Shown piece after piece: positions 2,200 through 47,169 of a stretch of 64,000 nt of DNA (its first letter is position 1; each line of letters opens with the position of its first letter). The notes beneath the pieces were generated by a model, which saw only the letters and a program-made list of their open reading frames with translations, searched no databases and had not been told where the DNA came from. The stretch comes from a virus (taxonomy: Duplodnaviria > Heunggongvirae > Uroviricota > Caudoviricetes). Made by a program: the position numbers and the translations under genes. The stretch is taken from the IMG/VR virus record IMGVR_UViG_3300031413_000001; one strand, given 5' to 3'.

Positions 2200-2987
2200 T
2201 GTTTACCACAGAGCAGCTAGATGGGAGGAGTGATCTCCTCCCAGTCTTCAATGGCAACACGGTTGTCCTCTATGTTCGAGACACTCATCCACACTTCTCT
2301 GGCGATTACAGCATGATGATTCATGGTCTTCGTAAGAGTGGCGACTTGGACAATGTCTTCCAACGCTGTCTATCAACTTCCAAGAGCGGTCAGGAACTGT
2401 ACTTTCCGCTTGAGGACTTTAGGCCAACAGCGACTGGATGGGAGTCCAGTCTGCATGATGCTGCCAAGGCAGTAACAAGGGCTGGGTATCAGGCAACTAG
2501 GGATAAGAATCTTCCCTTTCTCAGAATGTACATGATGGGAGATGTGGACACCAACATCGTTTGCCCAATTACTGGTCAGCAGGTTGATGCTTGGGTGTTT
2601 GATAACCAGCCCATCAATATCTGGGAACAGCATCACTTCAAGGTCCGTAATCGTGCTTCCATCCAAAAGGAACTAGCCGATCCAGGCGAGATTCTCCGTC
2701 GGCTTGATTTCACGGAGGTCTCTGGTGAGACGGTTGAAGCAATCAAGGACATGATGCGAACAGTCTTCCTGAGCCCAACAGCCCACAAGGCGGTCCACAA
2801 TGCGTGGAATGATTCGGACATCAGGAACTATCGGGCAGAGCAGCGTCCCTGGGCACTCCGGGATTGCGGCAATTGGGATAAGTGGATGGATTTCCTCCAG
2901 TCCTATGGATATCCCATTGAAACGTTTGGTCCCTTTGGTCCTTGGATCATTAGCCTTGAGCTAACCGAGGCTGAAAAGACCAGCTGA
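2199..2987 (+). CDS. Hypothetical protein, possible HNH-like nuclease
   Basis: Start overlaps upstream stop (TAATG); CPITG...EQHH...LSPTAHKAVH. Confidence 0.5.
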   Translation: MFTTEQLDGRSDLLPVFNGNTVVLYVRDTHPHFSGDYSMMIHGLRKSGDLDNVFQRCLSTSKSGQELYFPLEDFRPTATGWESSLHDAAKAVTRAGYQATRDKNLPFLRMYMMGDVDTNIVCPITGQQVDAWVFDNQPINIWEQHHFKVRNRASIQKELADPGEILRRLDFTEVSGETVEAIKDMMRTVFLSPTAHKAVHNAWNDSDIRNYRAEQRPWALRDCGNWDKWMDFLQSYGYPIETFGPFGPWIISLELTEAEKTS

Positions 2988-2993
2988 AAGTAA

Positions 2994-3031
2994 TTGACGG
3001 TGGACTCCTACCCTCATAAGTAGGAGTCCAC
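2994..3031 (+). promoter_or_regulatory. Sigma70-like promoter with its -10 region in the loop of a 12-bp inverted repeat
   Basis: ttgacg then gtggactcctac-cctcataa-gtaggagtccac. Confidence 0.6.
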
Positions 3032-3044
3032 AAAGGAGTACCTG

Positions 3045-3338
3045 ATGAGCACCGCACTCGACACTGAAACCGTCACCAAGCTGAAGGTTCCCAGCCTTTA
3101 CAAGGTAGTCATCCTAAACGATGACTACACGCCCATGGACTTCGTGCTCCAGGTCTTGGAAGAGATCTTTGGCAAAAGCGCGTCCGAGGCACACCTGCTC
3201 TGCATGGAAGTGCATGAAAAGGGCCGTGGCATCGCGGGCATCTACAGCAAGGAAGTCGCGGAGCAGAAGGTCTTCGAGACCAACACGATCAGCAAGAGCT
3301 ACCGTCATCCGCTGAAGACGCTTTCCGAACAGGCATGA
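3045..3338 (+). CDS. clpS: ATP-dependent Clp protease adaptor ClpS
   Basis: YKVVILNDDYTPMDFV...EVHEKGRGIAGIYSKEVAEQKV signature. Confidence 0.95.
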   Translation: MSTALDTETVTKLKVPSLYKVVILNDDYTPMDFVLQVLEEIFGKSASEAHLLCMEVHEKGRGIAGIYSKEVAEQKVFETNTISKSYRHPLKTLSEQA

Positions 3339-3499
3339 GCGACGGGGGTGATAAGCCGATGACGTCCTATGAACGGAAGATCCATTTGATAATGGAATCC
3401 AGTATGAAGCGGTTCAACGGCGAGTACACCCAGGAGCAATATGACCTAGAGCTCACGGTTGCTAGGAACATGCTGTCCGCGTTGGGGATTCACCCATGA
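3335..3499 (+). CDS. Small hypothetical protein (54 aa)
   Basis: ATGA overlaps with both neighbouring genes. Confidence 0.6.
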   Translation: MSDGGDKPMTSYERKIHLIMESSMKRFNGEYTQEQYDLELTVARNMLSALGIHP

Positions 3500-6537: not shown

Positions 6538-6980
6538 TGCGCGCTGGACTCCTCATGGGGCTGGTCCTTGCGGCCGGCCTCACCGCTTGCGAGAGTGCTC
6601 CGTCACCCAACGCACAGACGGCTGTTCAGGCGGTTCAAATCGGAAACGTGGTACATCGCTGCCTCAAGACCGACGACACCAAGCTGAGCACTGGCAGCAC
6701 CACCGATGTCAGTGGTGACATTCGCAGGAAGCTGTTGACTCCACAGGCACTGGCTGCGGGCGTTCGCGTCTTCATCAGTGGCTCGGACGTCAACAACTAT
6801 GGCTCCGTGGTGATCCACTATGCGACGGCCAACAACTCCTGCATTCTCTGGTCGGAAACCATTCCCGTCCAGGAATACAGCCAGCGTCTGGACCTGAACC
6901 CCCTGGGCATCAGTCCATACTTTGAGCCCACCCCCAAGGTGGCGCCCAAGCCGGCGACTCCGCCGGTCACCACCAAGTAA
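6537..6980 (+). CDS. Putative lipoprotein
   Basis: Lipobox LTAC. Confidence 0.65.
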   Translation: MRAGLLMGLVLAAGLTACESAPSPNAQTAVQAVQIGNVVHRCLKTDDTKLSTGSTTDVSGDIRRKLLTPQALAAGVRVFISGSDVNNYGSVVIHYATANNSCILWSETIPVQEYSQRLDLNPLGISPYFEPTPKVAPKPATPPVTTK

Positions 6981-6989
6981 GGAACCGGT

Positions 6990-7463
6990 ATGTTCTGGGT
7001 TTACGGTCTGGCAATCATCGTCTCGTTCGTCGTTGGTTACTTGATGTGGCCCAAGGACACTCGCTCCTTTCGAGTGGTATCCGTTAGTGGTTTGGTGATC
7101 GGCTCGATTATCATGCTCGGCATTTACATCACACAGTGGTGGCCAGTTGAGCACAAGGTAATCCAGAAGGTCACCAAACAATACGTCGATCCACCCAAAG
7201 TCGTCTTCAAAGACCGGATCGTCTACAGGGTCCCCGACGGTGAAGTGGCCCCCGTTGATGTCAAGGCGGCCTGCAGTGGGAAGAACCCCATTGAGATTGT
7301 CCGTATGAATGTAGCCGATGCTGACAAAGATTCGCGTATGACGTGGATTACCGGTCGCGTTGTTGGGAGCAAGATTCTGTTTACTTGCGGGCAGCCCGGT
7401 GATTATTCGGATAGCTGGGAAGTGGGCAATATCGTACAATTTGTCCGAGGTGAACCGCAGTAA
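6990..7463 (+). CDS. Hypothetical membrane protein
   Basis: Two N-terminal hydrophobic helices. Confidence 0.65.
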   Translation: MFWVYGLAIIVSFVVGYLMWPKDTRSFRVVSVSGLVIGSIIMLGIYITQWWPVEHKVIQKVTKQYVDPPKVVFKDRIVYRVPDGEVAPVDVKAACSGKNPIEIVRMNVADADKDSRMTWITGRVVGSKILFTCGQPGDYSDSWEVGNIVQFVRGEPQ

Positions 7464-12271: not shown

Positions 12272-12534
12272 GCTATATCGATCAACCCTCTGATAGCAAG
12301 ATCAGCTATCTGATGCTGGGGATCATCTTTCTTCTGATCATGATGGCAGTTGGCTTGATCGCCAACCAGCCCGAGCCAACTGTTGAGCTGACAGTCAAGG
12401 ACTGGCGCTGCATCAGCAGTCACGTGGAAGATGATCCCACGGGTGTCTACATTCCCGATGGCATCTACTTTGAAATCCCAGGCAAAAAGAATGTCTGTGA
12501 CCACTGGATCCGGCGTCTCTCTCCAAATAAATAG
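12268..12534 (+). CDS. Hypothetical membrane protein
   Basis: Single TM helix. Confidence 0.55.
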   Translation: MSYIDQPSDSKISYLMLGIIFLLIMMAVGLIANQPEPTVELTVKDWRCISSHVEDDPTGVYIPDGIYFEIPGKKNVCDHWIRRLSPNK

Positions 12535-33025: not shown

Positions 33026-33100
33026 GGTCCGTTAGCTCAGCGGTAGAGCATCTCGTTTACACCGAGGCGGTCGGCGGTTCAATCCCGTCACGGACTACCA
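33026..33100 (+). tRNA. tRNA-Val(TAC)
   Basis: Cloverleaf, CCA. Confidence 0.9.
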
Positions 33101-33101
33101 T

Positions 33102-33177
33102 GCCCTTGCCAGCGGATCTGGCCCCGACCGTGCGAAGGTCGGATTTGGATGAGGTTCAACTCCTCTCAAGGGCGCCA
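33102..33177 (+). tRNA. tRNA-Arg(GCG)
   Basis: cgacc-gtgcgaa-ggtcg; CCA. Confidence 0.75.
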
Positions 33178-33178
33178 C

Positions 33179-45263: not shown

Positions 45264-45805
45264 AGTCTGCTCACCGGAATGATTAGAAGTCCCACGCCCC
45301 AGAGAGTTGCATCGTAGTCCGCAATGGCCTCGAAGGTTCCGCCACTGTTCTTGAAATCCTGCAAGCAGGAAACATGATAGTTGAACGTGAACATGCTCTC
45401 GTCACCGGGGTTGGTCACGAAACTTTCAGTGTTCTGCTGGACGACTCCTGGAGCCTTCAGTCGAACCGTGAGGGCATTGTCAAAGGTTCCTGAGACAGCC
45501 TTGAAGGTTAGACGAAGAAGGTAGGTGTCACCAACATTCTTGGGAAAGAACTTGCTGTCAACGACGAAGTCAAAGTTGGCAAGATCCTTGCTGACGTAGC
45601 TTTTGCCGTAGTCCAGAGTTCCATCATTCCTGATGGTCTGAGCTACTGCGCCACGAAGCGACTGAGGGTTGGAAGCTGTGTGGGTTCCGTCTCCATAGAA
45701 GACAAAGCCCGTGTAGCCGTTGTTGGTGCTGCTATTGGCGTCGCCATCATAGCCACCACCAGTACCACCGCCGCCAATGACGAGACTTTTTAGACTAAGG
45801 CTCAT
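45260..45805 (-). CDS. Putative structural protein
   Basis: In the minus-strand operon. Confidence 0.6.
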   Translation of the reverse strand: MSLSLKSLVIGGGGTGGGYDGDANSSTNNGYTGFVFYGDGTHTASNPQSLRGAVAQTIRNDGTLDYGKSYVSKDLANFDFVVDSKFFPKNVGDTYLLRLTFKAVSGTFDNALTVRLKAPGVVQQNTESFVTNPGDESMFTFNYHVSCLQDFKNSGGTFEAIADYDATLWGVGLLIIPVSRL

Positions 45806-46236
45806 TAGACGCGGACTCCTCCCTGGGCACCGGAGATCGCGACGAGGATTGGACCATCAAGGCCCAAGATCCTAACACGCCACCAAGCGGTGCTTGGTTC
45901 AAAGTAGCCAGCTGGGCTGATGCCGGTCGAGGGATCGCCACGACTTTCCGCATCATCAACTGGGGCGGGGTGTTCACCAAGTGGACCGTTGGGATCGGAA
46001 ACCGAACGCTCCACGATGTAGGTTACCTGGCTGGCTGCACCGGTGATCTGAACTGCGATCTTACCCGCGAGGGCGACCCATTCAGTTACTCCAGCGGTTT
46101 CAAACGTCTGAAGGCAATTGATAGTGCGGTTCACGTTGCGATTCTTGAATTCGAATGTTTGCATCATGGGGCCCTCCTTGTCCATATTTACCCCAAAGGC
46201 AAAAGAATGAACATAGTGTAGATTTGCTGTTGACAC
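45805..46236 (-). CDS. Hypothetical protein
   Basis: TAATG coupling; true start may be the internal ATG after TAAATA. Confidence 0.55.
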   Translation of the reverse strand: MSTANLHYVHSFAFGVNMDKEGPMMQTFEFKNRNVNRTINCLQTFETAGVTEWVALAGKIAVQITGAASQVTYIVERSVSDPNGPLGEHPAPVDDAESRGDPSTGISPAGYFEPSTAWWRVRILGLDGPILVAISGAQGGVRV

Positions 46237-46260
46237 ATTGATTGGTGTATTCTATAAAGA

Positions 46261-46306
46261 GGGCAAGTTAGGAGCCCAGGGCCGGAAGGCAGCAAGTTTC
46301 TAACCC
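46261..46306 (+). ncRNA. SRP (4.5S) RNA domain IV-like hairpin
   Basis: CAGG-GCC-GGAA-GGC-AGCA on a 9-bp stem; promoter ttgaca 46230 / tataaa. Confidence 0.7.
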
Positions 46307-46353
46307 AAGCGACCATGCCGGTTTCAGTCACACGGACGGGTGGTCGTTTACAT

Positions 46354-46429
46354 ATCGGGGTAGCTGAGTTGGTTAAGCGTCCGGCTGTGAAGGCTGGGAG
46401 TTACGGTGGTTCGAATCCATCCCCCGATG
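46354..46429 (+). tRNA. Atypical His-like tRNA (loop tgtgaag)
   Basis: atcgggg/ccccgat; D and T arms canonical. Confidence 0.6.
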
Positions 46430-46690
46430 CTCGGCGTGCGGTCGGAGTTGGTTAAATTGGGCGATGAGTCTCCCAATACGCCCGATGCGAGCCAAATGCT
46501 TGGGGAGGGCAATTGATTTTGTCCTCTCCATCCATGTCCCCTCGGTGACCTCTGACTTCTCGACTTTGGGTCATGTTGCTGCGGGTATGTTTGGGACACT
46601 TGGCCGCTGGCGTTTCCAAACAGAAGCGGGTGCCCACAAGGCATTCCGGCGCGGTTAGACGTTCGAGCGCAAATGTGGTGAAAGTCCCAA

Positions 46691-46719
46691 GAAGCCCAGG
46701 GGAGAAATCCCTGGGCTTC
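46691..46719. terminator. Terminator-like hairpin
   Basis: gaagcccagggg-agaaat-ccctgggcttc. Confidence 0.6.
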
Positions 46720-46763
46720 GCCATATGTGTTGACAAGCACTCTCATGTTGCTATCCAGAGCAG

Positions 46764-47078
46764 ATGATCGCAATCGTAGTCGCAACTGAACGTAAACGTA
46801 TCCCTGAGCTCTACGAGTTCCTGGATGCACACGGTCCTGACTGGCGCTTCTACAATGTCTATGACAACGAGGCCGCCGAGGCTGATAAAAATCAGCGTAT
46901 TCGAGCCATGAACCTTGCCTTTGTGGAACAAAGTCGGGAAGTGGAAACCGACGGCTATACCAGCGAGACAACCGTAGTCGTGAGTCCACAGTGTGGCATG
47001 GCGGTTCGGCTTTGCTGGAACGTTATAACCTTGATTGATCTGCGAAAGCTAGAAAGCAACGGAGACGGGCTAATTTAG
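46764..47078 (+). CDS. Hypothetical protein
   Basis: 104 aa ORF. Confidence 0.6.
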   Translation: MIAIVVATERKRIPELYEFLDAHGPDWRFYNVYDNEAAEADKNQRIRAMNLAFVEQSREVETDGYTSETTVVVSPQCGMAVRLCWNVITLIDLRKLESNGDGLI

Positions 47079-47169
47079 CCAGAGCCCTCGAGATTTCGCA
47101 ACAAAACGCTTGACTTTGGAATCCACTAGTCGCTTACGTGCGTGAGCTGTTGACAACTCGTGGAATTTC

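Follow-up and report, generated by a model that had tools for sequence, protein, structure and literature searches.

A phage hairpin resembling helix 8 of signal recognition particle RNA at the head of a small-RNA operon

What use would a bacteriophage have for the tip of a signal recognition particle (SRP) RNA? The question is raised by a 64,000-nucleotide (nt) stretch of viral DNA (Caudoviricetes; IMG/VR record IMGVR_UViG_3300031413_000001), referred to here in its full length as the window, in which a 596-nt gene-free gap (46168-46763) contains a hairpin, HP1, together with the rest of a small-RNA operon. HP1 resembles helix 8 (domain IV) of the bacterial small SRP RNA, the 4.5S RNA encoded by ffs and described by the Rfam family RF00169. 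The window is part of a phage genome of ~417 kilobases (kb); a 416,714-base-pair (bp) IMG/VR record, G001, is 99% identical across the studied region and represents a sister genome. The SRP is essential and universal, and bacterial viruses that encode or target its RNA were not found in the literature searched. HP1 is real and selectively maintained; with moderate confidence, its sequence and fold are read here as a phage-encoded mimic of helix 8 that would bind the M domain of the host SRP protein Ffh, mainly as a competitor. The promoter and the hairpin have the following positions.

46230-46258, + strand: σ70-type promoter, with -35 TTGACA (46230-46235), a 17-nt spacer and -10 TATAAA (46253-46258)
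46267-46304, + strand: HP1, the hairpin resembling SRP RNA helix 8, delimited by RNA folds, a local match to RF00169 and RNAalifold

A preliminary description of the stretch had recognized CAGG-GCC-GGAA-GGC-AGCA as the Ffh-binding symmetric loop and tetraloop of 4.5S RNA, and this identification is borne out: each base of the core, CAGGGCCGGAAGGCAGCA at 46277-46294 on the + strand, equals the RF00169 consensus. RNAfold arranges the 38 nt of HP1 into a 9-bp lower stem (46267-46275/46296-46304), a C.A closure (C46276.A46295), a 5x5 internal loop with the strands CAGG (46277-46280) and AGCA (46291-46294), and an apex (46281-46290) in which the 3-bp stem GCC/GGC carries the GGAA tetraloop (46284-46287). 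With the outer GGG/CCC pairs counted the hairpin spans 46261-46306, in agreement with the ~46 nt first estimated. The GNRA-type tetraloop on a 3-bp apical stem that is required of RF00169 RNAs is present, and so is the symmetric internal loop with CAGG and AGCA strands, which is invariant in 13 phage sequences and three orthologous lineages. The C.A closure occurs in many natural ffs genes, and the core lies in a 22-mer shared without change by ffs types of Actinomycetota and Bacteroidota. The core pattern, allowing up to two mismatches, occurs once in the window where 0.06 occurrences are expected, and HP1 is the sole RF00169 match across the 417-kb sister genome.

The likeness ends below the symmetric loop. 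A cmscan comparison with Bacteria_small_SRP (RF00169), proposed as a check in the preliminary description, recovers the core but not family membership: 46270-46299 aligns to positions 31-60 of the 97-position model with 22.6 bits (E-value 0.035 in a 651-nt search and 0.005 in G001), where the gathering cut-off is 40 bits. The asymmetric loop of 4.5S RNA, whose 5' strand is 2-4 nt longer and which lies 3-5 bp below the symmetric loop, is missing from HP1. The long rod with its distal GTPase-docking end is missing as well, as had been suspected; the lower stem runs for 9 bp and closes at the predicted start of the transcript. E. coli ffs, fetched and folded, has both an ACCA/A asymmetric loop and a 100-nt rod, and 4.5S RNAs measure about 97-114 nt against the 38 nt of HP1, which further differs in being the phage-encoded 5' hairpin of a predicted polycistronic small-RNA transcript. 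Because the asymmetric loop and distal docking end are absent and the score falls below the cut-off, three defining features of the 4.5S family are lacking, and HP1 is a mimic, a phage version of SRP RNA helix 8 in truncated form, rather than a member of that family.

The placement of HP1 at a predicted transcription start, also part of the preliminary description, is consistent with the promoter listed above. Behind the -10 hexamer lies the G+C-rich discriminator GAGGGC, and transcription is predicted to begin at about 46265, 0-2 nt ahead of the HP1 stem. The window holds 11 such promoter-like sites, all on the + strand, compared with 4.9 expected on both strands.

Selective maintenance is most evident from orthologous loci. 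A protein database search with P0001, encoded by the leftward gene beside the gap, retrieved proteins 69% (P0004) and 68% (P0005) identical, on contigs L175-L178 and L179, and these contigs carry the same operon upstream of the P0001-like gene: the promoter hexamers and a start region with GGCAAG come first, followed by the SRP-like hairpin, a variable second hairpin (HP2), the odd tRNA and the invariant rod, and behind these lie further structure and a terminal hairpin that covaries. The hexamers and their spacing are the same in four lineages (the window, L175, L179 and L180, the last a complete 462-kb relative), and the spacer sequence differs. The cores of L175 and L179 read CAGG-GCA-GGAA-UGC-AGCA and CAGG-GCG-GGAA-CGC-AGCA, so that, with the window, the tetraloop is closed by C-G, A-U or G-C, with no change in the tetraloop itself or in either loop strand. 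When the 38 nt are compared with the window, none of the 14 loop and closing bases has changed, as against 14 and 16 of the 24 stem bases (P = 2e-4 and 3e-5); the stem changes are mostly compensatory, and the lower stem covaries. RNAalifold finds HP1 unaided on the full 594-column alignment, with six compensatory pairs. The orthologues score 27.2 and 30.2 bits against RF00169, again short of the cut-off, and have purine internal loops near the position of the asymmetric loop (2x2, GA/AA, in L175; 3x3, GGA/AAA, in L179). A metagenome scan yielded the sister genome and one 97%-identical relative; the contig of this relative differs from the window at one site in the 459-nt RNA region, compared with 0.6-8.6% in the flanking open reading frames (ORFs).

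The core also recurs in phages beyond these lineages. An IMG/VR scan with the SRP core, its first apical pair left free, returned 45 loci in three groups: bacterial ffs loci, often adjoining a tRNA-Ser(GGA) gene; chance matches in coding DNA, from which both flanking helices are absent; and ~12 large-phage contigs with the core on the tRNA strand within a tRNA array. A second pattern, with the pair closing the tetraloop left free, retrieved chance matches and bacterial ffs genes and nothing else from IMG/VR. The complete 436-kb phage L017 has the same 18-mer as the window, on a 10-bp stem, with a tRNA 21 nt past the core; L030 has a minimal hairpin with an AAC/A asymmetric loop; further minimal hairpins occur in L039, L010, L038, L040 and L044, and longer forms exist too. 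Across 13 phage hairpins, in 10 of which the core was preset by the search pattern, the covariation score of the flanking helices is 0.742, compared with 0.178 for shuffled sequences (0 of 500 shuffles) and at most 0.136 for slid controls. Searches of whole records with RF00169 gave full-length matches of 57.7 and 58.7 bits in 497-kb and 290-kb records and minimal ones of 28.5 and 28.8 bits in 436-kb and 183-kb phages; G005 and G006 belong to the full-length kind, G003 and G004 to the minimal kind. HP1 fits an informal class of mini hairpins defined by a helix 8 core, a helix of at most ~11 bp, a same-strand tRNA within ~100 nt and a large phage genome; L017, L030, L039, L010, L040 and L044 are comparable cases. 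The mini hairpins and SRP RNAs of other huge phages share with HP1 the core and the adjoining tRNA genes on the same strand, on contigs of 40-500 kb, but most of them lie between two tRNAs, whereas HP1 leads its own promoter-driven operon. The lower stem of HP1 is unrelated in sequence to those of the other phage hairpins, except perhaps that of L017, which shares the 18-mer and the AACCCAA that follows. In L017 (1-420 and 1981-2341) the mini hairpin lies 10 nt past the stop codon of a lysine-rich ORF and leads a tRNA-Arg and two tRNA-Ser genes, with a transfer-messenger RNA (tmRNA) gene 1.6 kb beyond.

Any protein partner of HP1 must be supplied by the host, because profile searches of G001 detected neither the M domain of Ffh nor an SRP GTPase, and with them neither ffh nor ftsY. 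A weak match to PF02978 (14.8 bits) was dismissed as the low-complexity tail of a 379-amino-acid (aa) ORF, and matches to PF00448 cover the P-loop only. Nor does G001 contain a full-length SRP RNA, as judged with three Rfam families that include the large bacterial and Bacteroidales SRP models.

The early-type σ70 promoter would yield a transcript in which HP1 is the 5'-terminal hairpin of a leader RNA of ~89 nt at 46265-46353, made up of HP1 and HP2, and RNase P, by cutting at the 5' end of the tRNA-like element, would produce the 3' end of this leader. Phage T4 offers a likeness in its species 1 and 2 RNAs, which are short, structured, of unknown function and freed from tRNA-containing transcripts by tRNA-processing enzymes; they are not known to carry an SRP-like motif. 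The leader would then be loaded on Ffh. In the SRP the A-C and G-G/A pairs of the symmetric loop contact SRP54/Ffh, as does the asymmetric loop (PMC4605306); early complexes have FtsY tethered by the tetraloop, and hydrolysis of GTP is triggered from the distal end (PMC4737761; PMC4091067). HP1 most likely acts by way of the protein contact that 4.5S RNA also makes, and the constancy of its key bases in related phages suggests that it probably captures host Ffh. FtsY could still be tethered through the GGAA tetraloop of HP1; a 41-nt tip of 4.5S RNA retains binding to this protein (PMC11404819). With the distal docking site lacking, however, activation of the GTPase and transfer of cargo are expected to be poor, and the RNA would then divert Ffh, and FtsY with it, into slow or inactive particles.

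Work on SRP RNAs lacking the docking site is the reason why HP1 is read as a competitor rather than as a replacement, the former being the more likely of the two. Removal of more than 14 bp from the distal stem weakens the GTPase and abolishes cargo transport, and E. coli is killed by overexpression of SRP RNA variants in which a usable docking site is missing, whereas extra wild type is harmless (bioRxiv 10.1101/378745). Engineered truncations of 4.5S RNA, namely the 41-nt form (PMC11404819) and the distal truncations including SRP_100 (bioRxiv 10.1101/378745 citing Ataide 2011), retain the end with the tetraloop but no docking site; such RNAs still engage FtsY, they fail to activate the GTPase or to transport cargo, and overexpression of them can be lethal in a dominant way. 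They are laboratory E. coli constructs that possess the asymmetric loop, whereas HP1 is natural, phage-borne and evolutionarily maintained.

Several observations weigh against HP1 as a competitor for Ffh. The shortfall of HP1 from the RF00169 cut-off is one, and G.U, G-C and A-U pairs at the place of the asymmetric loop are another; since that loop is itself a contact of SRP54/Ffh, the affinity of HP1 may be far below that of 4.5S RNA. E. coli makes 4.5S RNA in excess over Ffh, which only an abundant competitor, or one targeting newly made Ffh, could overcome. In L180 the promoter, the tRNA-like gene, the rod and a homologue of the downstream gene product P0002 are kept, but an unrelated leader hairpin takes the place of HP1, and a search of the whole record with RF00169 found no SRP-like hairpin anywhere in this complete genome; the operon persists there, which indicates that the hairpin is dispensable for it. 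As a guide to the host of the phage, the 22-mer around the core was of no help, being a common ffs core of Actinomycetota and Bacteroidota; its match labeled 'Janthinobacterium' is a Hymenobacter-like ffs locus, and a tblastn search with a neighboring kinase gave no clue to the host either.

The strongest of the other explanations, although we consider it unlikely, is that HP1 is a streamlined replacement SRP RNA that would bind Ffh and sustain membrane-protein insertion late in infection as part of a housekeeping-RNA kit of the phage that includes 49 tRNAs. The occurrence of full-length SRP RNAs above the Rfam cut-off in the tRNA arrays of some huge phages suggests supply rather than sabotage, and the intact tetraloop and symmetric loop of HP1 and its sharing of an operon with tRNA-like genes are in keeping with such a function. 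On the other hand, the 4.5S RNA of the host is stable and abundant, which leaves little need for a replacement. The RNA of the window has also lost the asymmetric loop, and, as set out above, shortening of the distal stem beyond 14 bp is reported to abolish cargo transport and variants without the docking site to be toxic in overexpression (bioRxiv 10.1101/378745).

Less probable still is a role with another partner, or a purely structural one, for which the SRP likeness would be convergent or vestigial; HP1 would then be a 5' stabilizer, a processing signal or a site for a phage protein, for instance an N-like antiterminator. Its position 0-2 nt from the predicted 5' end, where hairpins protect transcripts, would suit a stabilizer, many proteins read GNRA-type loops such as GGAA, the asymmetric loop is absent, and L180 manages with an unrelated hairpin at the same place. 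A stabilizer, however, needs no invariant 5x5 loop, and here all 14 loop bases equal the SRP consensus while the stems drift; the core recurs in unrelated phages between tRNAs, not at promoters; no boxA-like word was seen in the leader, and no candidate phage partner is known.

That HP1 is a functionless, decaying remnant of a host ffs gene captured along with tRNA genes is very improbable. The 22-mer shared with many ffs genes of Actinomycetota and Bacteroidota could be taken for such an origin, as could the UGCCGG common to HP2 (46315-46320) and the distal part of E. coli 4.5S RNA (GUGUGCCGGG); this word, in place of which L175 has GUGCCCG, may be left over from an SRP RNA that was formerly longer, or may be due to chance. 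In addition, cmscan can stretch a full-length RF00169 alignment of 30.2 bits across the leader of L177, but this alignment was rejected because it borrows the -10 region of the promoter as its 5' strand and contains many non-canonical pairs. Decay is difficult to reconcile with loops that stay invariant and stems that covary across lineages whose proteins differ by 31%, or with an RNA region conserved no less than the flanking ORFs. Finally, a chance match (about 20 IMG/VR matches of the two patterns do lie in coding DNA) or a fragment of the attachment site (attP) of a phage integrating into ffs, as one temperate phage is known to do (PMC12540744), has a negligible probability, both being refuted by the orthologue comparison: chance matches lack the helices and only 0.06 would be expected in the window, HP1 is the central domain of ffs with a promoter of its own and not a 3' ffs copy beside an integrase, and the ten neighboring ORFs scanned match no integrase family, in a region that encodes tail-fiber-like proteins of a 417-kb phage.

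The competitor reading has consequences for SRP biology. A natural 38-nt RNA pared down to the tip that contacts Ffh and FtsY is a probe for which parts of SRP RNA do what, and a dominant-negative HP1 would represent a new phage route to disabling host membrane biogenesis and would support the RNA-protein interface of the SRP as an antibacterial target (PMC11404819; bioRxiv 10.1101/378745). A replacement would instead add protein targeting to the tRNA- and tmRNA-based translation kit of huge phages. More broadly, it is conceivable, although the balance is somewhat against it, that a lineage of giant phages from the phyllosphere, and other huge phages independently of it, commandeer or inactivate co-translational membrane targeting in their hosts by means of helix-8-only mimics that load Ffh on an FtsY-recruiting, hydrolysis-dead RNA; a viral RNA directed at the bacterial SRP would then be without known precedent. 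No publication on phage-encoded SRP RNAs or mimics was found in the literature searched; the nearest, on the ffs-integrating phage (PMC12540744), describes an unlike locus.

HP1 may also be one of several RNA mimics in a single operon, the others being the invariant rod and a tRNA-like RNA whose anticodon loop is expanded. The small-RNA operon outlined in the preliminary description (more hairpins, an odd tRNA and a terminator-like hairpin) was recovered in full, and consists, downstream of HP1, of the following elements, listed with the two flanking genes.

46307-46349, + strand: HP2, second leader hairpin, supported by folds and by covarying outer pairs (RNAalifold)
46354-46430, + strand: tRNA-like gene (Rfam tRNA, 46.4 bits; ARAGORN, Ser(tga))
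46433-46493, + strand: invariant irregular rod hairpin of 61 nt, apex UGAG at 46465-46468, from alignment and fold
46464-46688, + strand: structured RNA stretch represented by RNA-library contigs from two metatranscriptome studies
46691-46719, + strand: terminator-like hairpin with an 11-bp stem and a 7-nt loop and without a U run (fold z -4.55)
45805-46167, leftward: gene of P0001, preceded by AAGGAGG
46764-47078, rightward: gene of P0002, 315 nt

HP2 varies in sequence between lineages, but the hairpin itself is always there; the leader as a whole folds with z-scores of -3.4 in the window, -3.6 in L175 and -2.6 in L179. A comparison of the leader with the Y-like RNAs of phage Ro60-like proteins, in which a closing helix of 7-9 bp is followed by an unpaired ACAGCAA, was rejected, since the CAGCAA of HP1 sits inside the hairpin after a 3-bp stem; ACAGCAA occurs 11 times in the window, with 9.9 occurrences expected, and 0 times in the tRNA array at 29-41 kb.

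The tRNA-like gene begins 50 nt past HP1 and 60 nt past its core. It has the acceptor strands AUCGGGG/CCCCGAU with A1-U72, a discriminator G and no encoded CCA, and its anticodon arm can be drawn with 6 bp and the loop YGUGAAG, placing G at position 33, or with 5 bp and a 9-nt loop. It has no long variable arm and is therefore not a real tRNA-Ser, despite the ARAGORN assignment. Its body is nearest to phage tRNA-Phe genes, as though GU had been inserted ahead of the GAA anticodon. The gene is kept in four phage lineages, with compensatory changes in the anticodon stem and the invariant loop word GUGAAG, at these positions.

window, 46354-46430, + strand: tRNA-like gene
L177, 983-1058, - strand: tRNA-like gene
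L179, 499-573, - strand: tRNA-like gene
L180, 12381-12455, - strand: tRNA-like gene

An extended anticodon, GUGAA reading UUCAC sites, was considered and found to be unsupported, the pentamer occurring at chance frequency.

The rod is 100% identical, save for one Y, across lineages in which the flanking protein is 68% identical, and it occurs also in L180 (about 12290-12355, - strand), where a normal U-tailed terminator lies behind it. It matched no Rfam family, has no paralogue in the window and shows no similarity to E. coli DNA. The CCCGAUGC of the tRNA-like gene is repeated in the 3' strand of the rod, and at 33100-33178 a stem-closed element between two tRNA genes, with a T-arm-like hairpin, contains GUGCGAAGGUCGGAUUUGG, which resembles the start of the rod, GUGCGGUCGGAGUUGG.

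The stretch from the rod apex onward includes a hairpin at 46501-46530 and the conserved boxes AGACGUUCGAGCGCA (46657-46671) and GGUGAAAGUCC (46677-46687). A 224-225-nt contig spans 46464-46688 with, in one run, a word depth of 57.9, compared with 2.5-8 in neighboring genes, and a variant RNA contig with a depth of 83.6 has 46464-46493 in common with it and diverges beyond; the downstream part of the operon thus occurs in RNA libraries, above the flanking genes, whose depth it exceeds 7-10 times in one run. The three RNA contigs share 46464 as their first position, even though the lineages do not differ in the sequence before it; this hints weakly that a genuine RNA terminus lies at the rod apex. 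The segment 46242-46463, with the hairpin and the tRNA-like gene, is uncovered by these contigs; short structured RNAs are seldom assembled into contigs. RNAalifold predicts a long-range pairing of 46430-46438 with 46658-46667 that would close a domain of ~240 nt. An ORF at 46464-46658 (64 aa) was discarded, not being preserved, by eye, in L179.

The stem of the terminator-like hairpin covaries in L175 and L179, and its one difference in G001, A>G at 46693, retains the pair as G.U. The next promoter, TTGACA-N16-TATCCA, follows 11 nt downstream with its -35 at 46730 (region 46730-46766); it ends 7 nt before the ATG of P0002, a distance so short that the P0002 messenger RNA may be leaderless. 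L179 has TTGAC at the equivalent place.

The sequencing runs that contain the window stretch originate from phyllosphere and plant metagenomes. Within the window ARAGORN finds 49 tRNA genes and Rfam 41, and a family scan of ten neighboring ORFs gave matches to phage tail-fiber families. A blastn search of a cultured-phage collection with 45800-47100 gave 0 matches, and P0001 and P0002 as single IMG/VR queries retrieved the sister genome alone. Between the window and G001 there are two differing sites in the gap and 14 in the 315-nt downstream gene. The L175 lineage has an HNH-endonuclease ORF (PF13392) directly behind the small-RNA operon, an insertion that separates the operon from the P0002 homologue, at the following positions.

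L175, about 2890-3400, - strand: HNH-endonuclease ORF
L177, 236-646, - strand: HNH-endonuclease ORF
L178, 776-1186, - strand: HNH-endonuclease ORF

In L180 a GOLLD RNA (RF02032, 171 bits, cut-off 150) lies at 6551-7000 on the - strand, about 5.4 kb from the operon of the tRNA-like gene and the rod.

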